A stretch of DNA of 64,000 nucleotides. It comes from an uncultured Gammaproteobacteria bacterium (GTDB lineage: Bacteria > Patescibacteriota > Microgenomatia > UBA10105 > UBA927). A model generated the notes under the pieces. The model had not been told where the DNA came from, searched no databases, and saw nothing but the letters and a program-made list of their open reading frames with translations. The first letter of the stretch is position 1; every line of letters starts with the position of its first letter. The position numbers and the translations under genes were made by a program. Of this stretch, positions 6,705-45,227 are shown in pieces. The stretch lies in NCBI GenBank assembly GCA_964629685.1, contig CAZVTT010000002.1:51468-115467 (forward strand), given 5' to 3'.

Positions 6705-7651
6705 TGAATCAACGTGTTATTGTTACCGGGACAATTGCTTACGATTATATTATGGATTTTACCGGCAAGTTTGCTGACCGGATAATGCCGGAAAAAATTC
6801 ATAAGCTGTCGTTATCTTTCCTGGTCGATCATCTCTCCCGGCAATTCGGCGGTACAGCGGGTAACATTGCATATTCACTGAAATTGCTGGGTATCGATCC
6901 GCTTATTGTGTCACCTGCAGGGAATGATTTCCCCCTATACGAAGCACACTTAAAGAAACAGAAAATTTCGGCTAAGTATATATCCGTGCATAAGGACGTA
7001 TCTATGGGTTCGTATTTTGTGATCACTGATCAGGATGATAATCAAATCGGTGCTTTCTACGCCGGCGGAGCCAAATACGCGGCCAAACTCAATCTCTCGG
7101 CAGTAAAAGAAAAAGTCGGATTTATCGTAGTGGCACCCACGGATGCGAAGGCGATGATATCGTATGCCCGGCAGGCTGCAAAAATGAATATCCCATATTT
7201 ATTTGATCCTGCGTTCCAGATTGCGGATTTCCCTTTGGAAGAACTTCGGGAGGGGATTACCCGTGCGCAGATACTCATCGGGAATGATTATGAAATAGCG
7301 TTAATAGAACAACGACTGGAAGTTAGTCATGAGGAATTACGGACAATGGTTCCGCTCGTCATTACGACACTGGCGGGAAAAGGATCAATTATAGAAACCC
7401 GTTATGAAAGTGTGCATTGTGCTGTTGCCCGGCCTGACAACACCAGTGATCCTACCGGAGCAGGCGATGCCTTCCGGGCTGGTTTTTTAGCAGGGTATTT
7501 ACGGAGCTACGATCTGAAAGTATGCGGACAAATGGGTTCTACTGCTGCGGTATATACGGTAGAAAAATACGGAACGCAAACACATACATTTACCCCCGCA
7601 GCGTTTATGAAACGCTACACGGAAAACTTCGGTACTGCCGTAAAACTGTAA
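6704..7651 (+). CDS. PfkB-family carbohydrate/nucleoside kinase (ribokinase-like)
   Basis: Start overlaps the ybaB stop (taATGa); GGTAGNIAY (GG motif); C-terminal DPTGAGDAFRAGF anion-hole motif. Confidence 0.8.
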   Translation: MNQRVIVTGTIAYDYIMDFTGKFADRIMPEKIHKLSLSFLVDHLSRQFGGTAGNIAYSLKLLGIDPLIVSPAGNDFPLYEAHLKKQKISAKYISVHKDVSMGSYFVITDQDDNQIGAFYAGGAKYAAKLNLSAVKEKVGFIVVAPTDAKAMISYARQAAKMNIPYLFDPAFQIADFPLEELREGITRAQILIGNDYEIALIEQRLEVSHEELRTMVPLVITTLAGKGSIIETRYESVHCAVARPDNTSDPTGAGDAFRAGFLAGYLRSYDLKVCGQMGSTAAVYTVEKYGTQTHTFTPAAFMKRYTENFGTAVKL

Positions 7652-7686
7652 ATATCTGCACGTGTTGAGCCGAATATATTTCACTA

Positions 7687-7715
7687 TTGACACAGATTGT
7701 AATATGCATTACATT
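7687..7715 (+). promoter_or_regulatory. sigma70-like promoter candidate TTGACA-N17-TACATT
   Basis: Seen directly: ttgaca 7687-7692, 17-nt spacer, tacatt 7710-7715; embedded in a partial palindrome (tgtaatatgcattaca). Confidence 0.3.
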
Positions 7716-7913
7716 TTGACTGTGTTCGTACATTAACACGTGAAGATAAAGAAAAGACTACAGTGTTCCGACAAGGATATAAGTGTATCTTTGTGGGAGC
7801 ACTGTAAAGGAATAAAACATCCGAAAGGAGAAAAGGCACCGAATAGGGCCTTGCTTCCGCATCCAGCCGTTTTGGTGAAGATGTGAACGAAAACGTATTT
7901 GTGAGGAGGTTTC

Positions 7914-8063
7914 ATGATGTTGTACCAAGGTCTGAGGCAGAGTTGTCGCACCGTCCACCGCCGTCGCCGTGAAGAAGGTCGTTTCAACACCATCTGGCGC
8001 GAGCAGTCATCCGGTCACGATCATCAGCCGAACACCCCCGAAGCGCACGCCGCCACCAGCTAG
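7914..8063 (+). CDS. candidate 49-aa Arg-rich small ORF (MMLYQGLRQSCRTVHRRRREEGRFNTIW...) in a GC-rich structured segment; may instead be part of an ncRNA
   Basis: Strong RBS gtgaGGAGGtttcATG. Codon usage is GC-rich, unlike neighbouring genes, so coding status is doubtful. Confidence 0.2.
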   Translation: MMLYQGLRQSCRTVHRRRREEGRFNTIWREQSSGHDHQPNTPEAHAATS

Positions 8064-8140
8064 GCAGACGAGCCGACCAGCAAGGTTGCGTGCAGTACAC
8101 ATGTCGTAGGTGAGCCGAGAGGTTCGCCCCCACAAGTACA

Positions 8141-8207
8141 TCGTAGGATGGAAGGGAATCGGCCCAGGCTGATTCCCGACCTACGTTTCCGTAGCTATTC
8201 TTTTTTG
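8141..8207 (+). terminator. Nested hairpins plus T-run (Rho-independent terminator-like)
   Basis: Outer stem cgtagg...cctacg encloses gggaatc-ggcccaggct-gattccc; then ctacg-tttc-cgtag followed by ctattctttttt. Confidence 0.4.
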
Positions 8208-8517
8208 ATTCATCCTTTTATTCACTTTTTTCTTTTTCCTTTACCGCTTTCGCTTAACGACATTACTCCGGAAATACGCAGTATTTTCGGACCCATATCG
8301 TTAAGCGCAGGCAGATGTCGAACACAAATCCGCTATCCGAAAATGCATCGGTAACAGCGGATTTTTTTGTGGCACTAAGCGGGTCAGCGATGGAACCATT
8401 CCCGTTATCTGGGCTCATCCGTTCTGGCAGAAATACGTCACACCTCGGGATACGCAGGGTAGAGAACCGAGCATACTTACGCGGCTGTTTCAATTGTGCT
8501 AGCATAAATACTTGCAT

Positions 8518-31793: not shown

Positions 31794-32549
31794 ATGGAAT
31801 ATACAGTGAAGCAATTAGCTACGATTGCCGGTATTAGCGTCCGAACCTTGCATTATTATGACGGAATAGGATTATTACAACCGTCCTTTCTCAAGGCCAA
31901 CGGGTACAGATGTTACCGCGAGTCGGAATTACTGAAGTTGCAACAAATATTATTCTTCAGGGAATTGGAGTTTTCTCTTGAGGAAATCACAAAAATTGTA
32001 CATACAAAAGATTTTAATGCGTTAGAAGCGCTAACAGAACACAAAAAATTGTTGCAGCTAAGGCAAAAAAGAATAAACGGGCTGTTGGACACAGTGGATA
32101 CCACTATCGCTGCGTTAAAGGGGGGTAAAAATATGAAAACAGATGATATGTTTGCTTCGTTTAGTGATGTGCAAATGGAAAAGTATAAAACAGAAGCCAA
32201 AAAAAGGTGGGGAAATACTGAAGCCTATAAACAATCGCAGGAACGGACCCGCAATTGGACAAAAGCGGATTATAAACGGGTGGCAGAGGAAGGCAAGGCG
32301 TTTACGCAAAAATTGGCGGCCGTGATGGACAAGGATGTGAAGAGTCCGGAAGTACAAACGCTCATTGATCAGCATCACGCTGGAATTGAAATTTTTTACG
32401 ATTGTCCGCCGGAAATGTACAGAGTGTTAGGACAGATGTACGTACAGGATAAGCGGTTTATGGAGTATTATGACGGGTTTAAACCCGGTCTGGCAAAATT
32501 CGTCGCTGAAGCAATTGCGTATTATTGCGACGTCCGGGGGAATACGTAA
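31794..32549 (+). CDS. MerR-family transcriptional regulator with TipAS-like C-terminal domain
   Basis: HTH YTVKQLATIAGISVRTLHYYDGIGLL; long helical C-domain typical of TipAS/Mta. Confidence 0.85.
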   Translation: MEYTVKQLATIAGISVRTLHYYDGIGLLQPSFLKANGYRCYRESELLKLQQILFFRELEFSLEEITKIVHTKDFNALEALTEHKKLLQLRQKRINGLLDTVDTTIAALKGGKNMKTDDMFASFSDVQMEKYKTEAKKRWGNTEAYKQSQERTRNWTKADYKRVAEEGKAFTQKLAAVMDKDVKSPEVQTLIDQHHAGIEIFYDCPPEMYRVLGQMYVQDKRFMEYYDGFKPGLAKFVAEAIAYYCDVRGNT

Positions 32550-32620
32550 CGAAAGACCAGGCTGCTGCTGCATCAGCTTTCGGTCTGTGATACACTTCGG
32601 CAAGTTAAAAATAATCCATA

Positions 32621-33189
32621 TGCCGGAAATAGAATATCCCTTCACACCGAACGAACATGGTATTCCGTTTTCCACTCTCTTTCAGCGAGTTTCAGCGGGT
32701 GAAACAACCGGAACTATCCAGGGCGGATCCGGATTGGAGTTGACGTATGAAGTACAACCGGATTTGATTTATATTCAGGATAAAACATATGCGGATAGGC
32801 TTATGGCCGCTCGATTTGAGGAAGGTGTTGCTCGATTTGAAATTCAAACCCGTGAATCGGAGCTCGATGTAGTCGGTAAAAAAATTCCGTGGGAAGTACA
32901 TCCCGATATGTACGCGCGGGAGTTTGTGGGAGTATCACTCGCTTATTTTGCACGCAACGGATTAACCGTAGACGCATGTAAGGGTATATGGAAACCAGGT
33001 TCGGATAATTATCGACAGTATCGCCAGGAACTACAACTTAATGGAAACTATATCCGTGCAGCTAAGCAAACGAAATCAGCTAAAATTTTTGCAGCATATG
33101 GGTATACGGAAGTGACAAAAGAGGATATCGGGAGTATACCACTCTGGAATACGAGCATCGTGACTGTATTATTTCATAAAAAAATATAG
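32621..33189 (+). CDS. hypothetical protein downstream of MerR/TipAS regulator
   Basis: ATG at 32621 chosen; the track ORF 32470 overlaps the MerR gene. Confidence 0.45.
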
Positions 33190-33226
33190 AAGATTATTTT
33201 GTATTCAAAGTATTTATTGAACGTTA

Positions 33227-34702
33227 ATGGTATTTAATTCGTTATCGTTTTTCATTTTTTTTCCTGTCGTTACGTTGCTGTATTATCTGATGCCGTTCAG
33301 ATGGCGCTGGGTATTGTTACTGATAGCCAGCTGCATCTTCTATGCGGCGTTTATTCCGGCTTATATTTTAGTTTTGTTTTATCTGATAGCGGTAGATTAT
33401 ATTGCAGGAAGAACGCTGGAAAAGACCGCTGGGAAGCTTCGGTTTCGCATCCTCGTAATAAGTTTGGCTTCCAATCTGGGAGTGCTCTTTTTCTTTAAGT
33501 ATTTTAACTTTTTTCAAACCGGTGTGGCTCAGTTGGGACAGTTTATCCATTGGAATTATTCGCCATATTTACTGCAGCTTATTTTACCCATTGGTTTATC
33601 GTTTCATACCTTTCAAAGCATCAGTTACGTAGTGGAAGTGTACAAGGGAAATATTAAAGCAGAGCGTCATATAGGGATTTACGGACTCTTTGTTTTATTT
33701 TTTCCGCAACTTGTAGCCGGACCAATAGAACGACCGCAGCACATGTTGCCCCAACTGCATACTGAACATGTTTTCGACGCTGCAGGGGTAACCGAGGGAT
33801 TACGGCGGATACTGTTAGGATTATTTAAAAAAATGATTATTGCCGATCGCCTGGCCATTCTGGTTAATCAGATTTACGGAGCTCCGCGGGAGTATACCGG
33901 CTTCCCATTATTACTGGCGACTGTTGCGTTTGCGTTTCAGGTGTATTGTGATTTTTCCGGGTACAGCGATATCGCTATCGGTGCCGCCCGCTGTCTCGGG
34001 ATAAAACTTAGCGAAAATTTTAATCAGCCGTATCTTGCCGGTTCAATCAGTTCGTTTTGGAGAAGATGGCATATTTCCCTGTATTCCTGGTTTCGCGATT
34101 ATGTGTACATACCTTTGGGTGGAAACAGAAGGGGAATAGTAAAACAGTTCCGGAATATCCTCATCGTATTTAGTATTACCGGGTTGTGGCATGGCGCAAA
34201 CTGGACGTATGTAATTTGGGGACTTATTCATGGCGTTTACATGGGCATACATATGTTGGGGACAAAGGTGCTCCGGTTTAATCTTGTTCCATCTGTATTG
34301 CCCCAAATAGTCCGGAACATTTTGGCTGTTGCGCTAACATTTTACTTCGTATGTTTTGCCTGGATATTTTTTCGTGCGAATACCCTTGCGGATGCCTGGT
34401 ATATAGCTACGCACGCTTCAGTGGGACTGGGAAGTTTGTTGTCATATATCGTGCACGGGCGATGGGAATATTTTAACGCTATCGTGTTCGGTCAGGGGCA
34501 GGGTTTAGGGTTAACTTTACCGCAAATCGGCATTGCTGTTGCCGCACTTGCGGCGCTGCTTTGGTTGGAATATGTACAGGGAAAAACAGGAATACAGAAA
34601 CTTCCCGTCGTCAGCCGTTGGGTAATTTATGTCGGATTGGTGCTGGCAGTGATTAATTTAGGTCCGGCAAATCAGGTTCCGTTTATTTATTTTCAATTCT
34701 GA
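33227..34702 (+). CDS. MBOAT-family membrane-bound O-acyltransferase (AlgI/DltB-like)
   Basis: FRDYVYIPLGGNRRG; WHGANW; conserved His; multi-TM. Confidence 0.85.
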   Translation: MVFNSLSFFIFFPVVTLLYYLMPFRWRWVLLLIASCIFYAAFIPAYILVLFYLIAVDYIAGRTLEKTAGKLRFRILVISLASNLGVLFFFKYFNFFQTGVAQLGQFIHWNYSPYLLQLILPIGLSFHTFQSISYVVEVYKGNIKAERHIGIYGLFVLFFPQLVAGPIERPQHMLPQLHTEHVFDAAGVTEGLRRILLGLFKKMIIADRLAILVNQIYGAPREYTGFPLLLATVAFAFQVYCDFSGYSDIAIGAARCLGIKLSENFNQPYLAGSISSFWRRWHISLYSWFRDYVYIPLGGNRRGIVKQFRNILIVFSITGLWHGANWTYVIWGLIHGVYMGIHMLGTKVLRFNLVPSVLPQIVRNILAVALTFYFVCFAWIFFRANTLADAWYIATHASVGLGSLLSYIVHGRWEYFNAIVFGQGQGLGLTLPQIGIAVAALAALLWLEYVQGKTGIQKLPVVSRWVIYVGLVLAVINLGPANQVPFIYFQF

Positions 34703-34703
34703 T

Positions 34704-35687
34704 ATGAAATTATTTTTTGCGAAATTGGCGTTCCTTTTTTTCATTATCCTCGTGCTGCAAACACTGATTGTAAAAAGCGTACCGTATCCGCCTCCTGAGG
34801 CCATTACGTTGTTGGATGAATATCGGCACCGGGGGATAGATATAGTGTATTTCGGTGACAGTACTACCACCTGGTACAGTAAGTTTGATACGGATATCCG
34901 CTCGATGCCGGTCATGGTTCAGGATATATTGGGAAAGCCTATCGGGGCTGTGACGCACAATTCATATCATGCCTGGAATTATGATGTGTATACCGAATAT
35001 ATGGTTCGGCACGGGTATAATCCTTCGTGGATACTTATTCCGATTAATTTGCGTTCATTTCCGCCGGAATGGGATCAGCGTCCCAATTTCCAATTTACCG
35101 ATGAGTCCTTGTATTTATCGCTATATAAAAGTCCGTTTCTTCCGTTATTATCGTTTCTCGTAAATATAACGGTACCGGAGATGGATAGACTGTACCGGAA
35201 TATATATCTGGCCGCTCCGTATTATGACGGAAGTACTAAAGTAGGAAACGGTGCTGACTATGAACGGAAGGTAAGTACGGAAAACCCTGACAGTATCCGC
35301 ATGCCGGCCATGGTACAAATGTTTTATCTGGGAGATATTGCCCCCACACACCGAAAGCTTCAGAATTTTATCCGGATCACGGAACGTTTCCGGTCCGGGA
35401 ATACTCATGTAGTATTTTATATTACCCCCATAGATTATCAGGCGGGCGAGCAGTATTTTGGTCCCAGGTTTACGGTACAACTCCGAAAAAATGTGCAGAC
35501 GGTTATGCAAATATTAAAGCAACACGAAGCGGACGTAATCGACTTAAGCCTTTCCCGGCCTACCGAGGATTTTTCCTGGCATGAGGTTTGGTATATTAAC
35601 GAACACTTAACCGCAACCGGCCGGGCATCGGTATCTGCCGAATTGGTAAAACATATGGCTTCCGTTTCCGCCACACGGAAAAATTAA
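34704..35687 (+). CDS. hypothetical membrane-anchored protein, likely the MBOAT partner (DltD/AlgJ-like role inferred from position)
   Basis: N-terminal TM; starts 2 nt after the MBOAT stop; no motif recognised. Confidence 0.45.
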   Translation: MKLFFAKLAFLFFIILVLQTLIVKSVPYPPPEAITLLDEYRHRGIDIVYFGDSTTTWYSKFDTDIRSMPVMVQDILGKPIGAVTHNSYHAWNYDVYTEYMVRHGYNPSWILIPINLRSFPPEWDQRPNFQFTDESLYLSLYKSPFLPLLSFLVNITVPEMDRLYRNIYLAAPYYDGSTKVGNGADYERKVSTENPDSIRMPAMVQMFYLGDIAPTHRKLQNFIRITERFRSGNTHVVFYITPIDYQAGEQYFGPRFTVQLRKNVQTVMQILKQHEADVIDLSLSRPTEDFSWHEVWYINEHLTATGRASVSAELVKHMASVSATRKN

Positions 35688-35830
35688 GCACAACACGTAG
35701 AATTTGACTTGTTCGTATCTCTGCAGTACGCTGCATTCAGTTTTTCAATTTTGCGCACCTTACCATCGGAGAAGATAAAAATCTTCTGCAGCCAAATTCC
35801 TCCAGTATAAAGTAGAGAAAGGTGGTCATC

Positions 35831-35974
35831 ATGACCAGCCGGCGTGGACTGTGTCTGTTAGTATGTGCTTTGTGTGTTGTGGCTACGGGCATTACAGCTC
35901 AATTCCTGTTCGTTACGAGCCAGACATGGTACAGCCAGACATGGGACTGGTTGTACTCACTCCCGTTGCGGTAA
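35831..35974 (+). CDS. candidate 47-aa secreted Trp-rich peptide (MTSRRGLCLLVCALCVVATGITAQFLFVTSQTWYSQTWDWLYSLPLR)
   Basis: RBS gagaaaggtgg 7 nt upstream; signal-peptide-like N-terminus; a 10-bp GC hairpin lies ~170 nt downstream (36148-36183). Missed by the 60-aa ORF track. Confidence 0.3.
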   Translation: MTSRRGLCLLVCALCVVATGITAQFLFVTSQTWYSQTWDWLYSLPLR

Positions 35975-36348
35975 CATGAATTGTCGTACCGGACGATGGG
36001 AAAGGATCAAGTTCTATATCGGGGTACCGTATGCGTGTCTGTTAATTCTCGTGCTGATCATACGGTACAAATTCGGTCGGTTTATTCCCCGGATATCGTT
36101 GAAAAAAACTATATGGCACATCCGTAGGTGATCAAACTAACCGATGCAACTGAAGGGAAGAGGGAGCTCTGGGAGATTTGACTCCCTCTTCATGGTTTAC
36201 GTATTACTGTTTCGGTTTAGGAGATTTATACGTACGGGGATAATCGCGTTTATATATTCCTCCTATACTGAAATCAGCTGAATTGATTTACTAATCCTCA
36301 CCGGAAGCGAAGTGCACTTTCGGGCGGGGATTTTTTTTGAAATACTGC

Positions 36349-36377
36349 TTGACGCAATAAATAATTAGCAGTATAAA
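36349..36377 (+). promoter_or_regulatory. sigma70-like promoter TTGACG-N17-TATAAA
   Basis: ttgacg 36349-36354, 17-nt spacer, tataaa 36372-36377; preceded by a palindrome and T8 run (terminator of the upstream unit). Confidence 0.45.
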
Positions 36378-36795
36378 TACGACTTAGTGTGTTAATCCGC
36401 TGTGATTATTACATGTTGCACGTTACCATTTGAAACACATAAAAATAGGAAAAGTTTCCCCGGGGAACAGAGCTATGAACAAATATTCACAGTTCCGTCC
36501 CCTGGGGAAAACCGGTTTCCACTGTGGGATTCACTCCTCGCTTAGCTAAGTTAACGCCAATCAAAAATGAAGGGAGGTGCCTCGACAAAAAGACGAAAAC
36601 TGTTCACAAACGGTAAAGTAAGAATCGTCAAAAAGAAAGAGGATCACCTATGAGAGCACTGAACAACTCACCCAATGGCGCGGACAATCGGGCGGCTAAG
36701 GCTGTCTGGCACTAGGCTGGCGATGCGATGATACCCCCCGTCAAAAATCGGCTACACTGTCGCAGTCCTACTTAAATCCCTAGGAGGCGGACAGA

Positions 36796-36860
36796 GGAGT
36801 TCGCGAATAAACGACGCGTGGCACGCGAACTCCTTCTGTACTGTTGTCTATTTTTTCTAT
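36796..36860 (+). terminator. Rho-independent terminator: 10-bp stem ggagttcgcg/cgcgaactcc plus T-rich tail
   Basis: Seen directly; followed by ttctgtactgttgtctattttttctattctttattg. Confidence 0.45.
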
Positions 36861-37054
36861 TCTTTATTGTTTCATTTTTTATTGCCCCGTGCTTAATCTC
36901 GTTTTTTCCGGAAAGATGATGTCTTTTTGGAAACAGAAGAGATTAAGCATGGAAATTCGTGTACGGAAAATCCGCTGACCATATATGCATGGGTAGGCGG
37001 GTTTTTTTTGTTTAGCCTGAGTGTCTATCTTGGACGAAGGGTGGAACGGAAGGC

Positions 37055-37381
37055 TTATGCGTATGTATTCGCGAATTTTTCTATTTCAGCCATGATGGGA
37101 AGTACAGCCTGTCCTTTTACGGTTAAAACATAGGTGACGGATAATTTATCTACCGTTTCTTCCTGTCGCCGGATAATGTTATCCTGTTCCAGTTTTTTTA
37201 ATCGATTGGTGAGTGTCGTAGGATTAAGTCCGCCCAAATCCCGCTGCAGTTGGCAAAATCGTTTTTCTCCGTCCCGTAGCGCCTGAATCAGCGCCAGGGT
37301 CCAGTAATCACCCAGCATTTTTAAGCCCTCGGCTGAGCAGTGCGGTTTTTTCCCGGGAGACGATCCTGTATGATTTTGCAT
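37055..37381 (-). CDS. HxlR-family (MarR-like winged helix) transcriptional regulator
   Basis: CSAEGLKMLGDYWTLALIQALRDGEKRFCQLQRDLGGLNPTTLTNRLKKLEQDNII; divergent from the FMN reductase. Confidence 0.8.
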   Translation of the reverse strand: MQNHTGSSPGKKPHCSAEGLKMLGDYWTLALIQALRDGEKRFCQLQRDLGGLNPTTLTNRLKKLEQDNIIRRQEETVDKLSVTYVLTVKGQAVLPIMAEIEKFANTYA

Positions 37382-37463
37382 AGTTGACACTGCTATAAAA
37401 TCTATAGTACTATAAATACTATAGTATTAGGGTGTTTCAGTCAATATTTTATAAAGGAGTCCT

Positions 37464-38051
37464 ATGTCTACGCAAGCATCAACCCCAATTTCTCTTCAGG
37501 TTATAATCGGCAGTACCCGGGAAGGCCGATTTAGCGAAAAGCCGGCCGGTTGGATTTTTAAAGAACTGCAGAAACGCAGTAACGTACAGGCGGAACTTGT
37601 CGATTTACGGGATTATCCGTTACCATTTTTTGAAGAAGGAATCTCACCCTCAATGATGAAGGAACCTTATGCGCATCCCGTGGTGGCAAAGTGGACGAAA
37701 AAAGTCGCAGAGGCAGACGGATATATTATAGTAACCCCGGAGTATAATCACGGCTATCCTGCGGTACTTAAAAACGCACTGGACTATGTGTACAAAGAAT
37801 GGAACAGAAAAGCTGTGGGATTTGTCAGTTATGGTTCGGTTGGAGGTGGAAGATCTATCGAACAACTGCGGCAGGTTGCCGTAGAATTACAAATGGCTCC
37901 GGTTCGACCATCTGTGCATATTACCTGGGCGGAATATATGGCCGCAGTAAAAGGGCAACCGGACGCATTTGCTCCGTTGGAACAGCAGGCAAATGTGTTA
38001 CTGGATCACATCATCTGGTGGACTACCGCCTTAAAGGTTGCCAGAACATAA
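37464..38051 (+). CDS. NADPH-dependent FMN reductase (flavodoxin-like fold)
   Basis: IIGSTREGR...; YIIVTPEYNHGYPAVLKNALDY. Confidence 0.85.
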   Translation: MSTQASTPISLQVIIGSTREGRFSEKPAGWIFKELQKRSNVQAELVDLRDYPLPFFEEGISPSMMKEPYAHPVVAKWTKKVAEADGYIIVTPEYNHGYPAVLKNALDYVYKEWNRKAVGFVSYGSVGGGRSIEQLRQVAVELQMAPVRPSVHITWAEYMAAVKGQPDAFAPLEQQANVLLDHIIWWTTALKVART

Positions 38052-38103: not shown

Positions 38104-38379
38104 ATGGAATCGCGTCAGTCTCTATCCGTTTGGTTATATGTCGGTGTGATAGCGATTTTCGCAATAGTGGTCGTATTTTCTTTATATAAATCAAAAAAGG
38201 AAAATGCTTTACGGCAGGTAAGCGATTTTGAAACATGTGCGCAGGCAGGCTTTCCCGTAATGGAATCTTATCCTGAACAATGCCGGACTTCTGATGGCCG
38301 CACGTTCGTGCGAAAGATTACGGAACCGGTTGAAACGACGACTCCGGAATTCCCCGAAAGTGATGAACCGACAATGTAG
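38104..38379 (+). CDS. small membrane-anchored hypothetical protein
   Basis: N-terminal TM helix, two Cys, acidic tail. Confidence 0.4.
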   Translation: MESRQSLSVWLYVGVIAIFAIVVVFSLYKSKKENALRQVSDFETCAQAGFPVMESYPEQCRTSDGRTFVRKITEPVETTTPEFPESDEPTM

Positions 38380-38382
38380 GTG

Positions 38383-39792
38383 TTATCTCTGCAGTGTTAA
38401 CGTTGCGGTAACCGGTTTATCCGGTCTCATAACTGCTAGCACAGCGGGCTCTGGTGAGTTGGTTAAGGCTATGTCGTACCGTGAAAGCGTCATTGCTACC
38501 AGTGCCGGTCCTTCCAGCATTGCCAACGGAGCACCTATGCAGCTCCGTGGGCCCATGCCAAATGGAATATACGTTCCCGCTTTCTGAGATTCGTTCCGAA
38601 TAAATCTCAGCGGGTTAAACTCTTCGGGATTCTGCCAATGACGATTATCATGGTGCATAATGTACGGACTTATAACAATGGTCCGTGCGATGGGGACGAT
38701 GCGGCCCTTAGTAAGTTCAAGCTGACGTGTGGCTCTACGGCTAAATACCCAAACAGGCGGATGAAGCCGCATCGCTTCCTTAAAGCACATTTTCGCCATT
38801 TCCATTCCCCTAAATTGTTCAACTGCTGGCCGTCCTGTCGCTTCGTTCGCCTGTAACCGTATTGTCTTCACGTGTTCCGGTTGGGTATGAAGTTCGTTAA
38901 TTGTCCAAATAGCGGCGTTTGCTGTTGTTTCATGACCGGCGACGAAAAATCCGACGACTTCGTCAATCATCTCCTGTCTGGTAAATTTCTCCGGGTTATC
39001 CCGGTGTGCCTGTATTAAAGATGACAATAAATTCTGTCTATCGGGGGTGGCATGTGCGAGCATGTCTTCCGCAAAAGCCCGTAGATAGGTAATACTTTCC
39101 TGGGCTTTTCTGTAACCGGAAAATGCGAAATTACGGAGTATCCAGGGAAGTCCTGCACCCCTGACGGCATCGCTATAGTATTGAAATACGGTACTTATGG
39201 CTCCCCCCAATTCTTGAGCTTGCTGCGTATTTATCCGGTAATCAAATAAGGCTTCTGCGATGATTCCCGCAGCGAGGTTATTCAAACTTTGGTGCAGATT
39301 ATCTATATGAATTGTACCGTCGGGTAAGGCAGTTCTTTCCCAGTCCGTAAACATCTCACGGGTTTGTCGTGAGACTACCTCCATGTATCCGTCAATCATG
39401 GTACGGTGAAATGCAGGTTGGGATATGGCCCTATGTATCATCCATTGATCCCCGCCGATTACTCCAAACAGATTATCGCCGTACAGTTCCCGGAAAATTC
39501 TGATATCCCGTCCGTCCCTGAGTACGTCGTCGCTATAGGTGGTTAATACTAATCTGATATCTTCGGGGTCACTCAGGAGAAATACGCGCTTAGTTGCCAG
39601 ATCAAATTCTACAAAATCTCCATACTGATCCTGTACGTTTAGCAGTTCATTATACGGATCGCGCGCTAAAGCATAACCGGTTCGGATGGTATCAATGCCC
39701 CGGATGACGGTAGTGTCACCTTCTTTAATCATAATTTTCGGCGTATTGTACCGGAACGTTGCTGATTTCACAACCATTACCGTCAGTCCCAA
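38383..39792 (-). CDS. cytochrome P450 monooxygenase
   Basis: Haem-binding FGMGPRSCIGAPLA (FxxGxRxCxG); EAMRLHPP (ExxR); AGHETT (I-helix). Confidence 0.9.
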   Translation of the reverse strand: MGLTVMVVKSATFRYNTPKIMIKEGDTTVIRGIDTIRTGYALARDPYNELLNVQDQYGDFVEFDLATKRVFLLSDPEDIRLVLTTYSDDVLRDGRDIRIFRELYGDNLFGVIGGDQWMIHRAISQPAFHRTMIDGYMEVVSRQTREMFTDWERTALPDGTIHIDNLHQSLNNLAAGIIAEALFDYRINTQQAQELGGAISTVFQYYSDAVRGAGLPWILRNFAFSGYRKAQESITYLRAFAEDMLAHATPDRQNLLSSLIQAHRDNPEKFTRQEMIDEVVGFFVAGHETTANAAIWTINELHTQPEHVKTIRLQANEATGRPAVEQFRGMEMAKMCFKEAMRLHPPVWVFSRRATRQLELTKGRIVPIARTIVISPYIMHHDNRHWQNPEEFNPLRFIRNESQKAGTYIPFGMGPRSCIGAPLAMLEGPALVAMTLSRYDIALTNSPEPAVLAVMRPDKPVTATLTLQR

Positions 39793-39814
39793 AGGAGGAT
39801 TACCGTAATCGCAG

Positions 39815-40792
39815 TTAGTATACAGCCTTTACGTTGGTGTAATTTATGGTTTCTTCGGCTATATTGGCGATATAACTCCTGATCCGTTCTATGCTGTCCT
39901 CAATCATAATATTCAGTGCGGATTTGGATACGCTTTTTATGGACATGTATTCGTTCTTTGGATGTGATTCATAGAGGTCCAAAACCTGATGGGCTTTTCG
40001 TTTATCTGTAGACGCCACAGTAGCTTTCAGCAGTGAAAAATATTCATCGAGCTTAGTCAGATTCGCGTGTTCAAATTTATTGAGCTGAATCTTTTCATTC
40101 TCCTTTAATAACAGAATAGTAGAAGCGATCCGGACCATATGGTCTGCCATACGTTCCAGACGAATTGCTACATGTTCATAATAATGTAGATCAAGAAGGG
40201 GTAGGTCTGCCGGTTGCTCCTGAACAATGGAATAGAGCATACGGTTAAACTGCCTTAGCATCATCAGATGAATACGGTCAACTTCCACATCACGTTCGAC
40301 GACGTCTTTGGCAAGTCTTTTATCCTGATGTTCGACAACATGTGTAACATCCTGATACATGGAGTAAACCAGTTCAGCCATTTTCATACAATACTCGGGA
40401 GCTGTTATGCGGGTACTGGCTACATTTTTCATGACAATTTGTTGCGAGGTCTGTTCAAATAGTTCAAAGCCGAATAGTTTATATGAGGTGGCACGTACAA
40501 ACGCCCGTTGTTCATACGTTATTGCTCTGGCTTGTACTACTATTTCTTCCACTCCCGATACAAACATGCCGATTATTTCCCGAAGTACGTGCGTATTACT
40601 TAAATAATCAATCGTGATAACGGCCCGGGCGGGATCTTTACTTTTCCGCGATCGGATGAGCAATTGTCCGCCGGGAAGCGTATCAATATTTACGATTCCT
40701 TTATCTTCCAGCTGATGGTGTAGTATCCATTCTTTTGGCAGGGTTACTATGTAGCTGGAACCTCCGGTCTTTTGTATACAGCGTGTTTCCAT
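39815..40792 (-). CDS. PhoU-domain regulator with N-terminal SpoVT/AbrB-like swapped-hairpin domain (archaeal-type phosphate uptake regulator, COG0704-like)
   Basis: N-terminal GGSSYIVTLPKEWILHHQLEDKGIVNI then two helical PhoU-like repeats. Family call from pattern memory. Confidence 0.55.
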   Translation of the reverse strand: METRCIQKTGGSSYIVTLPKEWILHHQLEDKGIVNIDTLPGGQLLIRSRKSKDPARAVITIDYLSNTHVLREIIGMFVSGVEEIVVQARAITYEQRAFVRATSYKLFGFELFEQTSQQIVMKNVASTRITAPEYCMKMAELVYSMYQDVTHVVEHQDKRLAKDVVERDVEVDRIHLMMLRQFNRMLYSIVQEQPADLPLLDLHYYEHVAIRLERMADHMVRIASTILLLKENEKIQLNKFEHANLTKLDEYFSLLKATVASTDKRKAHQVLDLYESHPKNEYMSIKSVSKSALNIMIEDSIERIRSYIANIAEETINYTNVKAVY

Positions 40793-40986
40793 ATGGTTAT
40801 CTCTGTAGATCTATAGATGACTATATAGTTGCGAATTTAGATCTTTAAGACAAGACAATTCCTTCATTACGATCAATAATCTTATAGTATTTATCTTATT
40901 TTGTCTGCGGTAATGATTATTTAGCATAAATATATATTAACAATTAAATATATAGATATCATAACGTAAAGAGAAAGTACAGTCCT

Positions 40987-43900
40987 ATGCCTGTAGAAAG
41001 ACAATTTACTCCGGAACAAGTAAGACCTGATATTGCCACACCCCGTATTCAGGAACACTTTACGGCGTTAAGCCTAGTCCCTCCGGAAACGCCGATTGAA
41101 CGGGGTGATTTATTTACTGCAGTCACCGATACATTGCAGGTCCCGGTGAATACGTTGCAACTCCTCGAACCGTTGTGGGATAAAGCAGTTCAGGAACGGG
41201 GACGATTGGCAGATGAAACCTTTCGAAATGAATTTGTGGCTGATTTCCTGACGGAATGGACGGATGCCGTGCTGAGTGCACCGGATATTACCGTTTCCGA
41301 TAAAGCCGTTCGACTGTTTCATCATCTATCAGTTCCCGAGGATACAGGTGAACGGATTTTGGAAGTGTTGCGGAAGCCGGGAACGATTCACAAACGGAAA
41401 ACGCAGATATTGGAAGATGTTTCCCTGGTTGCTGCAGCCGTTGCGGAAAGTCAGGAACTCTCATTGCCTGTTGCACATGCATTCACGGAAATTTGCCTAC
41501 AAGTACGGCCGTTGTTGGGTCGTAAAAAAAAGGTACAGCTTGAACATGCGGTCGCGACAGTTATAGATTCATTGCGCGAAAACGCCCCGTATCAGTCAGC
41601 TGCGGTATATATGGCTTTACACGATGGCATGTACGCCCAAGACCAACAGGGAGACGTGCAGGTTGGGAAGAAAATAAACGTCCGGCGGATTTCCCGTCAA
41701 ACTCAGTTTTTACCGTACTTACTGCAAACACTTCCGCAGCGTGAATTTGACCGGGTAGGACAAGTTGTTCGGACAGCACTAACGGATAGTAAGGGTGTAA
41801 CCGCGGCAGAACTACAGGTACTCGATTCGTCACTGGCGGATATTCCACCACGCGTATTTCGGGAAATGATGGATTCGTTCACACAAACCGGCTACGTAAA
41901 GAAGAACGGCAACGAGAAGTATTCATTGACGAGTACGGGTAAGCTGCGTGATCATCTTGGATTCGAAGAAATAAACCGTGTGCAGGTAGCAAGGGAAATG
42001 CAGGATAGCGGTGCCGTAACCGGAAAAACCATAAAAAGTATACAGGATATCGTTTCCATATACCGGCACAATCGGGAAGAAATAAAGGTTTCCGAACGCC
42101 AGGTAACTGTGAGTGGAAGCGGTTACCGTATGCTGTACCTTTCCGAATTACCCATCGGAAATAAAGATGTGGATATAGAATTGGCGGCCCGGATCGTAGA
42201 TTACTATCACAGACTTCCTGCGGATCAGCGTCCTGACGTGATTGTTATCTCCGGATTACTGCAGGGAGGTTTTCAACATCGGGACAAAAACAGAAGGGGT
42301 GCTTTGGCCATTAAAAGCGTAGATGAACAGTTACAGGCTGCTCATGTATTTATGACGCACCTGCAGACCATAGGCGTGCCTATTCTTTACAACATGAGTA
42401 ATGATGATTTTGAAATTTGTCATAATTATGCACTGGAGGCAGTCCGTATGGTGGGGGCTGCTGCCGCACCGCAGTCAGACACGGATAAATCATTTATCAG
42501 TTATTGGAATATTGACCGGTTAAAGCAGACGCGTGAGTGGGATATTCATTTAAGTTTCCAGCTAAATGTCGCGTTTCCCTATATGTTGCGGTTGGGTAGA
42601 CGATTACGGTCTGCAGATGAAGTGGCGGAATTTACCGACGGTAAGCTACGGAGAGAAGAATATTTACTCCTATACGAAGCATATCGTGCCGGTGTGCGGG
42701 GTGAGCACGTCACTGCAGAACAGTTCGGCGGCGTAGTTGATTTGGGAGCGCTACCTTTTGAAGGCAGGATATTTCCGTTTGATATTGTTGATGACGTTGA
42801 TCTCACGGTAAAAACGGATAATCAAACATATGTGCACTACATTAAGCATAATTTTAATTTCGGGGATAAACCTATGTATCAAAACCCCACAGCTGCGATG
42901 GAAGCCAGCGTGGGTCAGCTTTCGGCCAGAGGTGAAACGGTACCCAATGTATTTACCATTCAGCATCAATTGCAGGGATTAGCACTGAGTACCGGAGAAT
43001 CCTGGGTGATTTCTACCCCAGGATTTCTCCGACCCGATATCCGGCAACGTGCAGCGGTGGCAAATATTCAAGGCGAGCCGATTCACCGGACGTTAAAAAC
43101 CAGAAGGTTGGAGCCGACACCCGGTGCGTTTACTGCAGAACAAACGGATGACGGTCGGACTATATTTCATGTTCTTACCGATAAATTTCTGGATAAAGCC
43201 ACAATAGAGTCGGACCGGTCTACGGTCGTATATTTTAACGACTGGCAAACGGGTTCCATGACGGCACAATCTGATTTACAGGCGAAGCTAATAGATATTG
43301 TGGCACACGAATTGTTACCAACCAGACCGGTATACCTAAATCTGATTGGCGATATGATTCAGGGAAGAAATTATCCCGGAATGGAATTGGAAAATAAAGC
43401 GTTGGGATTAGTTGAAATAGACGATCAGGCCAGATTTGTAACCGAAATGCTTTCATTGGGCCTGGCTGATGTATCTGCCGCAAACGTGGCAAATTTAAAA
43501 CGGGTAGGAATATTACCCGGTAATCATGAATGGAATTCTCAGTATGTAAAAACCGGAGCAGTCCATACCGGATATCTCTATGATTTCTTCAGATATTATT
43601 ATCAACTCCACGGCATTACGCCAAATGCCAAAAATTTACAATTCTACCGGCAATTACAGGCTGACCGGGATCATGTAAAGGCCTGGACCGGAATGGAAAC
43701 GGTTGCCGGATACGGTATGTTATCCCAGCATATTATTATCGAAAAAGGAGCTAAAGGAAATTCGGCTGGCGCGCCGGTATATCAGGCGCAAAATTTATTT
43801 ACCGGAGTCGGCTCCCTGGTTGAATCCGTAGACACGATGGTTGCCGGTCATTGGCATCATGGGCAGTTGGCTTTATTTAACGGAAAAGTCGCTACCATTG

Positions 43901-44211
43901 CCCCGGCTCTCGCCGGTTTATCCGGCTACGAATGGTTACGCGGATATCGTCCGCAATTGGGCGCACTGTTCATTCATCTGGGCGGGGGACGTGTGCCGGC
44001 GTTCGAATACCTCAGTGCGCAGGCGTTATACCGACATAGGATGCAGGGAAAATATTTTTCTGAGGAGCATCTCCGGTCACTAGGATTTAAAGATGATCGT
44101 CATTATGATCCGGCCAAGCATGGATTCATGTCGCGAAAGAGTGGGTTACAAAAGGCGTTATGGGATCTGAAAGATCATATTATCGGTGATTCCCATGCGA
44201 TTATTGCGTAA
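40987..44211 (+). CDS. large (1074-aa) uncharacterised protein with a C-terminal calcineurin-like metallophosphoesterase domain
   Basis: LIGDMIQGRNYPG (GDxxxxG), ILPGNHEWN (GNHE), VAGHWHHGQ (GHxHH). Degenerate earlier copy (DVIVISGLLQGG ... VPILYNMSNDDFEI). wHTH-like FTQTGYVKKNGNEKYSLTSTGKL. No signal peptide. Confidence 0.6.
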   Translation: MPVERQFTPEQVRPDIATPRIQEHFTALSLVPPETPIERGDLFTAVTDTLQVPVNTLQLLEPLWDKAVQERGRLADETFRNEFVADFLTEWTDAVLSAPDITVSDKAVRLFHHLSVPEDTGERILEVLRKPGTIHKRKTQILEDVSLVAAAVAESQELSLPVAHAFTEICLQVRPLLGRKKKVQLEHAVATVIDSLRENAPYQSAAVYMALHDGMYAQDQQGDVQVGKKINVRRISRQTQFLPYLLQTLPQREFDRVGQVVRTALTDSKGVTAAELQVLDSSLADIPPRVFREMMDSFTQTGYVKKNGNEKYSLTSTGKLRDHLGFEEINRVQVAREMQDSGAVTGKTIKSIQDIVSIYRHNREEIKVSERQVTVSGSGYRMLYLSELPIGNKDVDIELAARIVDYYHRLPADQRPDVIVISGLLQGGFQHRDKNRRGALAIKSVDEQLQAAHVFMTHLQTIGVPILYNMSNDDFEICHNYALEAVRMVGAAAAPQSDTDKSFISYWNIDRLKQTREWDIHLSFQLNVAFPYMLRLGRRLRSADEVAEFTDGKLRREEYLLLYEAYRAGVRGEHVTAEQFGGVVDLGALPFEGRIFPFDIVDDVDLTVKTDNQTYVHYIKHNFNFGDKPMYQNPTAAMEASVGQLSARGETVPNVFTIQHQLQGLALSTGESWVISTPGFLRPDIRQRAAVANIQGEPIHRTLKTRRLEPTPGAFTAEQTDDGRTIFHVLTDKFLDKATIESDRSTVVYFNDWQTGSMTAQSDLQAKLIDIVAHELLPTRPVYLNLIGDMIQGRNYPGMELENKALGLVEIDDQARFVTEMLSLGLADVSAANVANLKRVGILPGNHEWNSQYVKTGAVHTGYLYDFFRYYYQLHGITPNAKNLQFYRQLQADRDHVKAWTGMETVAGYGMLSQHIIIEKGAKGNSAGAPVYQAQNLFTGVGSLVESVDTMVAGHWHHGQLALFNGKVATIAPALAGLSGYEWLRGYRPQLGALFIHLGGGRVPAFEYLSAQALYRHRMQGKYFSEEHLRSLGFKDDRHYDPAKHGFMSRKSGLQKALWDLKDHIIGDSHAIIA

Positions 44212-44232
44212 TGCGGTGCCGGGAGGTAATTC

Positions 44233-44493
44233 ATGCGTATGTTTAGAAGAATAGTTGTTCAATCCCTATCTTTTGAAGACCAGCTGAGATATCGGTTGAA
44301 ACCTTATCTGGAAGCAAAATTAATAGAAGATTGGATTTTCCGGATGCAGGAACAATTGAAAATTATCCGGCGTGATCCAAACTGGTGGCCCAAAGGAGAA
44401 TTAGATTACAAATTATTTATTCTGGAACTGGTATCGGATGTTATCGCAGTTAACCGAGCTATGCAAAAAGGAAAGGAGGTGATTAGTCAATGA
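44233..44493 (+). CDS. small protein, paralog A of a tandem WWP-motif pair
   Basis: 86 aa; DPNWWPKGELDYKLFILELVSDVIAV; RBS gggaggtaattcATG. Confidence 0.55.
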   Translation: MRMFRRIVVQSLSFEDQLRYRLKPYLEAKLIEDWIFRMQEQLKIIRRDPNWWPKGELDYKLFILELVSDVIAVNRAMQKGKEVISQ

Positions 44494-44747
44494 ATGTATC
44501 TCCGTTGTATACGACAAATGCCTTTGAACAGGCAATGGTCAGTAATCTTACGCCGCAATTCGGTAGGAGATTAGTGCATACCTGGATATGCGAGTTGCGG
44601 GCAAATATGGTGGGTATGCATAAAGGTACTGACTGGTGGCCACGGGATGTCGAAGCGTTTACGATGTTTGTCTTGGATATTCTTACTCAGGTAGTACCGT
44701 CGTATTCCCTTTATTCCCGGGTGGGTATAAACCCGGCGGTGGAATAG
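44490..44747 (+). CDS. small protein, paralog B of the tandem WWP-motif pair
   Basis: 85 aa; GTDWWPRDVEAFTMFVLDILTQVV; start overlaps paralog A's stop by 4 nt (ATGA). Confidence 0.55.
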   Translation: MNVSPLYTTNAFEQAMVSNLTPQFGRRLVHTWICELRANMVGMHKGTDWWPRDVEAFTMFVLDILTQVVPSYSLYSRVGINPAVE

Positions 44748-44804
44748 TTAATATTGTAATCTACCGTACAAAGGCCTCATAATACGGTAAAGGGGGAAAT
44801 TATT

Positions 44805-45227
44805 ATGGAAGTTCAGGTTAATTTTTTGGCAATCTTACTTGCCGGCATCGTATCTATGGCCGTGGGATTTTTTTGGTATAGCCCTATGGTATTGGGAAAG
44901 CCATGGATGAAGTTGAAGGGGTATACCGCCGACTCATTAAAAAAAGCCCAGAAGGAAATGGGAAAACTATATGGCGTAAGTTTTGTCGTTAGTTTGATTA
45001 CGGCTTACGTGCTTTCTCATGTCATGACGCTTTCTGTTGCATTTTTTCATTATGGAAAGTTGGAAACAGGACTGATTACCGCGTTTTGGATGTGGCTGGG
45101 ATTTATGATGCCGGTACAACTGACAGCAACTATTTTCGGTGACAAAAAATGGAAACTGTTGGCAATAGACAGCGGATATCAGTTGGCATCCGTACTTCTG
45201 ATGGGGGTCGTGCTGGGGTTACTGTAA
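44805..45227 (+). CDS. DUF1761-like small membrane protein
   Basis: NFLAILLAGIVSMAVGFFWYSPMVLGKPWMKLKG pattern; 4 TM helices. Confidence 0.55.
   Translation: MEVQVNFLAILLAGIVSMAVGFFWYSPMVLGKPWMKLKGYTADSLKKAQKEMGKLYGVSFVVSLITAYVLSHVMTLSVAFFHYGKLETGLITAFWMWLGFMMPVQLTATIFGDKKWKLLAIDSGYQLASVLLMGVVLGLL

Follow-up and report, generated by a model that had tools for sequence, protein, structure and literature searches.

Locus A and its genomic setting

The DNA analysed here, called the window below, is a stretch of 64,000 nucleotides (nt) from contig CAZVTT010000002.1 of an uncultured member of the Patescibacteria, and it is chromosomal, carrying DnaX, CysS, HisS and AdoHcy hydrolase. Our subject is locus A (36349-37009, plus strand), which lies in a 1.37-kb interval (35688-37054) without any open reading frame (ORF) longer than 88 aa, between a 327-aa plus-strand gene, the partner of an MBOAT acyltransferase, on one side and a convergent HxlR gene (37055-37390) on the other. 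A previous sequence-only reading had described this place as a discrete promoter-to-terminator unit with two short basic-peptide ORFs, adjoining an HxlR regulator, an assignment that Pfam supports at 3.9e-19. A paralogue of the locus in the same window, locus B (7687-8369, plus strand), was missed by that reading, and it is the two loci together that are considered here.

Locus A was compared with L002, a syntenic 19-kb Logan contig that carries the closest HxlR homologue (P0008, 76% aa identity) and to which positions 36181-38036 align in blastn at 73% identity, intergenic region included. The sigma-70-type promoter read from the sequence, TTGACG-17-TATAAA (36349-36354 and 36372-36377, plus strand), is present as previously described and conserved, being TTGACA-18-TATAAA in L002 (identity 0.82 over 36341-36384), and would start transcription at approximately 36382-36387. 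Directly upstream stands a conserved putative terminator (36296-36338), in which the alignment with L002 contains a compensatory change of G-C to C-G and which appears to separate locus A from the preceding small-ORF unit. A consensus promoter/terminator scanner lists neither the promoter nor the terminators of locus A because of its own rules, which require a T at position 6 of the -10 box and exclude loops larger than 8. The promoter that it lists instead, TTGAAA-17-AATAAT (36337-36365), is not conserved in L002.

The predicted transcript begins with hairpin P1 (GUGUG... / ...UGCAC, 36387-36421, plus strand as are all features of the two loci), which corresponds to pairs 8-42 of the RNAalifold consensus of the two species and in which one pair has undergone a double compensatory change from C-G to U-A and two others have changed from G-U to A-U. 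An A-rich tract (36431-36454) follows that forms the 5' strand of a predicted long-range helix, P2, whose 3' strand is the U-rich tract at 36850-36874. The long irregular hairpin HP1 (36455-36511), with arms at 36455-36479 and 36486-36510 and the conserved AACCGGUUUCC after them, is the GC hairpin of the sequence-only reading (36455-36510); its identity to L002 is 0.87, including a 29-nt perfect block, and a change of C to U opposite G retains the pair. Further downstream an orphan Shine-Dalgarno (SD)-like box, AUGAAGGGAGGUGCCUC (36567-36583, identity 0.89), has no start codon at SD distance and coincides with the start of the 28-aa ORF (36567-36653); in the consensus fold its predicted partner is either local (GGAG/CCUC) or the region of the ribosome-binding site (RBS) at 36640-36650. 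The RBS, AAAGAGGA (36636-36643), and the 21-codon ORF that it precedes, MRALNNSPNGADNRAAKAVWH (36650-36715), occupy 36636-36715, with an identity of 0.83 over RBS and start. Both small ORFs are where the sequence-only reading had placed them, and they overlap as ATGA.

Past the 21-codon ORF lies a conserved block, UAGGCUGGCGAUGCGAUGAU, 100% identical in L002, with a hairpin UGCGAUG/UGUCGCA that has a variable C-rich loop (together 36713-36768; pairs 350-356/384-390 of the consensus fold). Hairpin T1 (36791-36849) has perfect arms of 11 bp (36795-36805 and 36824-36834), extendable to about 16 bp (36791-36839); the arms are conserved, the loop is variable, the consensus energy is near equal on both strands and a T6 run starts about 12 nt past the perfect stem. 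The 3' module that is common to both loci consists of HP3 (36887-36952, 66 nt, identity 0.88) and the intrinsic terminator T2 (36965-37009, identity 0.82), a stem followed by U8 (T8 run at 37002-37009); here the second hairpin of the sequence-only reading is present, its T9 run being a T8 run. Inspection of the alignment of locus A with L002 revealed no conserved separate promoter for HP3-T2 in the U-rich spacer. T2 is positioned 45 nt past the stop of the convergent HxlR gene, with an A-tract upstream and a U-tract downstream, and could terminate both transcripts.

Conservation, the paralogous locus and the RNA fold

At 4-fold degenerate sites of five flanking genes the identity to L002 is 0.30-0.37, that is, these sites are saturated. 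As the blocks of locus A remain at 0.82-0.89 identity nonetheless, the locus must be under selection. Moreover, these blocks outconserve the adjoining proteins whereas the spacers run free, with 1-, 2- and 6-nt indels and identities of 0.43 in the linker 36523-36566, 0.34 in the body of the 28-aa ORF and 0.39 in the U-rich spacer 36846-36886, as expected of an RNA gene and not of a decayed coding gene. The view of locus A as a discrete transcription unit is thus borne out, and the evidence that we regard as decisive against chance is the conservation in L002 together with the paralogue in the same window.

The gene content around the locus differs between the lineages. L002 lacks two blocks, MerR/TipAS-189aa-MBOAT-327aa (31794-35687) and 91aa-P450-PhoU/AbrB-1074aa-140aa (38104-45227), which leaves as the conserved core two small membrane-protein ORFs, RNA locus A, HxlR and an FMN reductase. 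In a third lineage (L069/L070) the 354-aa and 138-aa genes have no C39 peptidase and Amidase_3 genes between them. Gene order appears to be fluid around a fixed RNA-HxlR-FMN reductase core.

Locus B was found with R1, a covariance model of HP3 and T2, whose sole other match with filters off is a full-length one at 8240-8373 (38.7 bits, E about 1e-7); model R3 scores the same module at 112.5 bits. This module is homologous to 36884-37012 of locus A, the two loci being 28 kb apart, and locus B occupies an 860-nt gap between the genes of a PfkB kinase and a HAD hydrolase. From the sole promoter-like site in 7600-8500, TTGACA-17-TACATT (7687-7715, 10/12 matches), an RNA of about 0.65 kb (approximately 7722-8369) would be transcribed, with its parts in the same order as in locus A. 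After an A-rich tract comes a long 5' hairpin (7760-7805 in the minimum free energy (MFE) fold), the positional counterpart of HP1; it is followed by an orphan GGAG box (about 7826-7832) and by the RBS GAGGAGG with a 48/49-codon ORF, MMLYQGLRQSCRTVHRRRREEGRFNTIWREQSSGHDHQPNTPEAHAATS (ORF 7914/7917-8063, with RBS 7903-8063), which ends in UAG-GCAGACGAG. The next segment (8109-8194) holds a GNRA-capped hairpin (8109-8128), the anti-SD-like CCCCCACAAGUAC, which is predicted to pair with the RBS region, and T1-like hairpins, of which the scanner flags the one at 8181-8194 with its U-rich tail, and the copy of HP3 and T2 (8245-8369), recognised by R1, R3 and covariation, closes the locus. The U-rich spacers of the two loci are identical at 21/25 nt and lie at an equal offset from the inferred start.

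An exhaustive protein search with the locus B peptide yielded one real homologue, P0140 (51 aa, 79% identity), carried on ~0.65-kb ENA contigs of the third lineage (L071, L072). Nine stretches of P0139, a 533-aa repeat protein, match residues 18-47 of the peptide at 45%, yet they appear to be low-complexity sequence or the translation of tandem repeats (GRQQSEHHEHQPD) and were not accepted as a true relative. Compared with the third lineage, locus B has identities of 0.95 in the 5' untranslated region, 0.85 in the ORF, 0.98 in the T1-like hairpin, 0.63 in the spacer, 0.80 in HP3 and 0.90 in T2, the segment after the ORF also falling within 0.85-0.98, whereas 4-fold sites of two genes of the same genome pair are at 0.28-0.29. 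The GNRA loop is GAGA in the window and GUAA in L071, with wobble-compatible changes in the stem.

Folding of the single sequence gave z = -3.56 for the plus and -3.48 for the minus strand, and since these values are near equal, energy alone does not decide between the strands. In the alignment with L002 a secondary structure is conserved: the alignment-shuffle z is -8.06 for the whole RNA, -4.25 for the 5' region with HP1 (structure conservation index (SCI) 0.77), -5.26 for T1 and -9.73 for HP3 with T2. The consensus energy is lower on the plus than on the minus strand for the whole RNA (-138.6 vs -107.9 kcal/mol), for HP3 (-31.5 vs -15.1 kcal/mol) and for T2 (-19.5 vs -10.1 kcal/mol; SCI 1.03 vs 0.77), and hand inspection of the consensus fold showed that after each of the four one-sided changes in HP3 the plus strand still has a standard or a G-U pair. 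On account of these G-U-compatible changes and of the consensus energy, locus A is on the plus strand. When the HP3/T2 modules of both loci and their relatives are aligned (four sequences), 92.4% of the cells are paired and 7 pairs have changed on both sides, HP3 alone contributing 6 such pairs at 94.4%; the covariation of 0.314 compares with 0.19 after shuffling (0/500 shuffles reach 0.314) and with at most 0.07 when the sequences are slid.

P2 (36431-36454 / 36850-36874), of 22-29 bp, occurs in the full-length MFE fold of both species. Its strands differ between the species, each pairing best with its own partner: cognate duplexes have -16.6 and -15.8 kcal/mol and cross-species duplexes -6.9 and -12.0 kcal/mol (shuffle z -2.8 to -5.2). 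As the U-rich tract after T1 would thereby pair with the A-rich tract about 400 nt upstream, T1 would lie within a closed domain, and T2 is the likely 3' end. The sequence-only reading had taken T1 for a clean terminator with a 10-bp stem (36796-36860); the hairpin itself stands, with arms of 11 bp, but it is probably an internal hairpin or a leaky terminator. From these elements two transcripts are predicted, one of about 470 nt and one of about 625 nt. The RBS region of locus B has CCCCACAAGUA, 3' of the ORF, as its partner in the consensus fold.

Searches for known families and for further copies were negative. No Rfam family was recovered when the whole window was scanned with the 4227 models of Rfam 15 at gathering thresholds, and when matches up to E = 10 were admitted, those to locus A, to locus B and to the L002 orthologue of A were miRNA-like long-hairpin noise and sub-threshold leader or small RNA matches only. 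ARAGORN listed 0 tRNA or tmRNA genes in the window, and a crude duplex-folding target scan against neighbouring start regions gave no informative result. An Amidase_3-anchored scan of GTDB species-representative genomes, among which neither the species of the window nor a close relative is represented, gave 53 loci, the best tblastn matches (60-66%) being in metagenome-assembled genomes of Candidatus Woesebacteria, Amesbacteria and Levybacteria of the Microgenomates group, and nhmmer and covariance models did not find the element in these loci; R3, run over 0.91 Mb of retrieved loci, detected no further copy either. Other anchors were equally unproductive, the 327-aa upstream gene being a near-orphan (best match 46%) and HxlR homologues at or below 69% identity not being syntenic (checked for P0009 and P0010). 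Exact-block scans produced none and then one chance 20-mer (L068) in two runs over metagenome DNA, and three chance 18-mers but otherwise none in four runs over viral DNA, and plasmids and phages gave no blastn match to the 1.37-kb gap. Two covariance-model matches, L027 and L021, were rejected, L027 falling within a 125-aa ORF. By these searches the family would so far comprise three related lineages of small-genome Patescibacteria only.

The mini-ORFs, the proposed mechanism and its alternatives

The two ORFs of locus A fared differently in the comparison. In L002 the 28-aa ORF reads MKGGASEDER and stops after 10 codons, the first 17 nt, which are the RNA box, alone being retained, and we consider this ORF to be a probable by-product of the box. 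One of the two peptides flagged earlier would thus be an artefact of a conserved RNA element, which calls for caution in small-ORF mining. The 21-aa ORF, on the other hand, keeps its RBS, AUG, UAG and frame in L002, where a 9-nt in-frame indel shortens it to 18 codons (MRTMNNSPNNAHIMEASA) and where the peptide sequence drifts freely after residue 11. The indel (36701-36709) comprises the V-W-H codons. Two other frames were rejected: a 47/49-aa frame that spans HP1 owes its openness in the two species to nucleotide conservation alone, has no RBS and is frameshifted by a 2-nt indel directly downstream, and a 100-aa minus-strand ORF of L002 is broken in the window. In the locus B peptide, positions 7959-7985 encode an Arg-rich stretch, HRRRREEGR...W, that recalls RNA-binding motifs of the arginine-rich type, and it is conceivable that this peptide interacts with RNA, for instance with the GNRA hairpin 8109-8128.

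We propose, with a probability of roughly 0.55, that loci A and B represent a new family of independently transcribed structured RNAs of about 0.63-0.65 kb with structure-gated mini-ORFs, of the dual-function type. As conservation at each of the three codon positions far exceeds the neutral level, we infer from the alignments that the function is exerted at the RNA level, in addition to or instead of the peptide. In the proposed mechanism the A-rich 5' tract would pair with the U-rich tract after T1, closing the body of the RNA as one domain, and T1 as an internal hairpin or leaky terminator with T2 as the main 3' end could give rise to the short (~470 nt) and the long (~625 nt) isoform. The SD region of the ORF would be sequestered by pairing with a CU-rich partner, which is the upstream box GGAGGUGCCUC in locus A and the downstream CCCCCACAAGUA in locus B, and our proposal is therefore that translation of the mini-ORF may be gated by RNA folding, the transcript acting as a dual-function, RNAIII-like riboregulator. 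Among the candidates put forward by the sequence-only reading, a dual-function RNA fits best.

Several points weigh against this proposal. Each locus was compared with one orthologue, A with L002 and B with the third lineage. The differences at codon positions 1/2/3 number 6/5/3 in the ORF of locus A (hand count from the alignment) and 7/5/3 in that of locus B, where 2 synonymous stand against 10 non-synonymous codon changes, and the preservation of the frame is judged from four indels inside the ORFs in total. The central part of locus A (36519-36794) has no conserved fold beyond chance (z = -0.48, SCI 0.36), the majority of the pairs of HP1, of T1 and of the SD helices are invariant and hence uninformative, the helix between SD box and RBS of locus A is not the MFE fold in L002, and the pairing of A-rich and U-rich tracts in locus B is no better than with shuffled U-rich strands (z = -0.75). 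Finally, the 5' and 3' ends and the isoforms of both RNAs are read from sequence alone.

The loci could instead be purely non-coding structured RNAs, in which the ORFs are untranslated and the SD and AUG blocks are kept as structure or as binding sites for protein, 30S subunits or target RNAs, an explanation that we find possible but rather doubtful. The third codon positions of both ORFs are as conserved as the first and second, against 0.40-0.51 in real genes nearby, and the missing third-position excess argues against a peptide under purifying selection; the locus A peptide diverges freely past residue 11, SD-like GGAGG boxes occur in both loci without a following ORF (36567-36583 and about 7826-7832), and by our own estimate an 18-codon frame is open by chance in about 40% of cases. 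Yet the indels inside the ORFs (A and B pooled; three separate in-frame 3-nt indels in B) are multiples of three in 4/4 cases compared with 3/12 elsewhere in the RNAs (Fisher p = 0.019), suggesting that the frames matter although the peptide sequences drift; the RBS at canonical spacing and the AUG are retained in three lineages, and the stop with its context, UAG-GC(A/U)G(A/G)CGA, is common to both loci (UAG-GCUGGCGAUG in A). The loci might also resemble type I toxin-antitoxin systems, with a toxin mRNA silenced by 5'-3' pairing and SD sequestration, activated by 3' processing and opposed by a not-yet-recognised antisense RNA. Nearly all known type I toxins are hydrophobic, whereas MRALNNSPNGADNRAAKAVWH and MLYQGLRQSCRTVHRRRREEGRFNTIWREQSSGHDHQPNTPEAHAATS are hydrophilic, without any hydrophobic stretch or transmembrane helix, and the RNAs of hok/sok and the aapA1 type are about 2-3 times shorter than those of loci A and B. 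Constraint at all codon positions would suit an overlapping antisense RNA, and a minus-strand promoter-like site, TTCAAA-18-AATAAT with TG (36434-36405), is roughly kept in L002; however, no antisense promoter was found in locus B, so that none is common to both copies, and a minus-strand terminator is not evident. Pfam, NCBIfam and PADLOC give no match for the peptides of either locus, the sequences of which are poorly conserved. We therefore consider this candidate of the sequence-only reading improbable in spite of its resemblance to hok/sok and aapA1/IsoA1, which lies in the paralogous copies, several per genome, the short ORFs, the sequestered SD and the predicted long-range closing helix. 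According to PMC5416894 (see also PMC6733600), folding of the full-length aapA1 transcript impedes translation and 3' processing activates it, and in type I toxin mRNAs, as in our loci, the fold is conserved above the peptide; a comparable locking of the mRNA is predicted in locus A by P2 and in locus B by the pairing of the RBS with CCCCACAAGUA.

The succession of a short ORF, a hairpin with a U-rich tract and a second terminator in both loci could also be read as a leader-peptide attenuator, in which stalling on codon runs sets the read-through of T1 and thereby controls the 3' module or, in locus A, convergent transcription toward HxlR. There are codon runs to stall on (Asn at 4 of 18-21 codons in A, Arg as HRRRR in B), ORF B has both of its synonymous changes in the Arg run, and HP3-T2 of both loci has a sub-threshold similarity to Phe_leader (RF01859; E = 1.6 and 7.5). 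We nevertheless hold this to be quite improbable, as no same-strand gene that could be regulated lies downstream before T2, the codon runs, at 75-170 nt from T1, are too distant for classical coupling, a conserved alternative antiterminator was not found, P2 takes up the U-tract after T1, and the Rfam scores are 16-20 bits against a gathering threshold of 55 bits for a model of 125 positions, about five times shorter than the ~625-nt RNA. That the repeats act as DNA, either as a miniature transposable element bounded by 23-nt inverted repeats (36431-36453 / 36852-36874) or as palindromic protein sites such as HxlR operators, is very unlikely. Locus A does contain inverted repeats (I1-I3), TTCCCCGGGGAA is a perfect 12-nt palindrome and the window holds a second copy of HP3-T2; but stem changes are pairable only with G-U on the plus strand and the minus consensus energy is far worse, an asymmetry unexpected of a DNA palindrome, the arms of the inverted repeat co-vary and are mutually complementary in each species, and the conserved sequence does not end with the repeats but takes in the promoter and HP3/T2. 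Nor is the locus scattered, being orthologous and syntenic, and its 5' part has no other copy in the window or the loci; a target-site duplication was not seen on inspection, plasmid, phage and viral collections had no matches, and the likely HxlR operator, TATAGTACTATA (37391-37463), is unlike locus A. Equally far-fetched, in our judgement, is a ribosomally synthesised and post-translationally modified peptide (RiPP) precursor. The precursors that biaryl-crosslinking P450s modify are very short and contain aromatic or His residues; VWH forms the end of the 21-aa ORF, and a cytochrome P450 is encoded in the window at 38383-39792, while L002 is without both the VWH codons and a nearby P450. This co-variation is a single one (n = 1), however, the P450 gene is 1.7 kb off, encoded by the opposite strand and separated from the ORF by two unrelated genes, no comparable gene adjoins locus B and the RNA-level conservation would be left unexplained.

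For the dual-function RNA that we favour, the nearest functional analogue would be a riboregulator such as RNAIII of S. aureus (RF00503), an RNA of 514 nt with 14 stem-loops that encodes delta-hemolysin (Hld) and some loops of which are C-rich and bind G-rich RBSs (PMC9266662). Loci A and B are comparable to it in size, have their own promoter and terminator, many hairpins and an embedded short ORF, and contain C-rich or SD-complementary stretches. Unlike RNAIII, they belong to a different phylum without sequence or covariance-model similarity, they are two paralogues with a common 3' module, no quorum-sensing locus is nearby, and the hydrophilic peptides are not toxins of the PSM type. As multi-hairpin RNAs of about 0.6 kb with GNRA- and UUCG-capped hairpins, a long-range closing helix and conservation above that of neighbouring proteins, they also recall OLE, GOLLD, ROOL, HEARO and raiA. 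They differ from these in that their ORF is conserved in frame and has an RBS, in that none of the models matches them up to E = 10 and in that they are so far known from three close lineages only.

Patescibacteria have small, densely coding genomes, and to our knowledge almost nothing is known of their regulatory RNAs. In such a genome about 0.6 kb that contains no long ORF has retained 82-98% identity over most of its blocks and occurs at least twice in 64 kb, and this level of constraint suggests that the cell depends on these RNAs. More tentatively, loci A and B may be the first representatives of a class of large structured Patescibacteria RNAs that has not been described before. These RNAs outconserve the surrounding proteins, their common 3' module may be a protein-binding or stability scaffold and, with their structure-gated mini-ORFs, they might serve as a new riboregulator or ribonucleoprotein or as a non-canonical toxin-like module controlled by RNA. 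The genomes, of roughly 1 Mb, are likely to contain further copies elsewhere, and the predicted ends, the mini-ORFs, the 3' module and the covariance model make the family a testable entry into RNA-based regulation in uncultivated candidate phyla.

Neighbouring genes

The small-ORF unit upstream of locus A consists of two tandem hydrophobic ORFs of 47 and 51 aa (35831-35974 and 35976-36131, plus strand), each with one predicted membrane helix and the first preceded by the RBS AAAGGTGG. Both reading frames are also intact in L002, for which gene calling gives a 46-aa gene, with a conserved C-terminus W-x-x-x-PLR, and they have no match in Pfam, NCBIfam or PADLOC; a conserved hairpin (36157-36191) and then the terminator at 36296-36338 lie 3' of them. 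On the other side of HxlR, the divergent HxlR/FMN-reductase promoter region (37391-37463) contains the perfect palindrome TATAGTACTATA and a repeated ACTATAGTA, and this palindrome is likely the operator of HxlR, unrelated to the RNA element. The gap 44211-44805 was considered as a third copy of the RNA and rejected, as it holds two tandem plus-strand ORFs of 85-86 aa (44233-44493 and 44490-44747) that overlap as ATGA and look like mutual paralogues, both having D-W-W-P. Upstream of these, a 1074-aa ORF (40987-44211, plus strand) has no Pfam match and contains metallophosphoesterase-like motifs (GDxxQG, GNHEW) near its C-terminal half.

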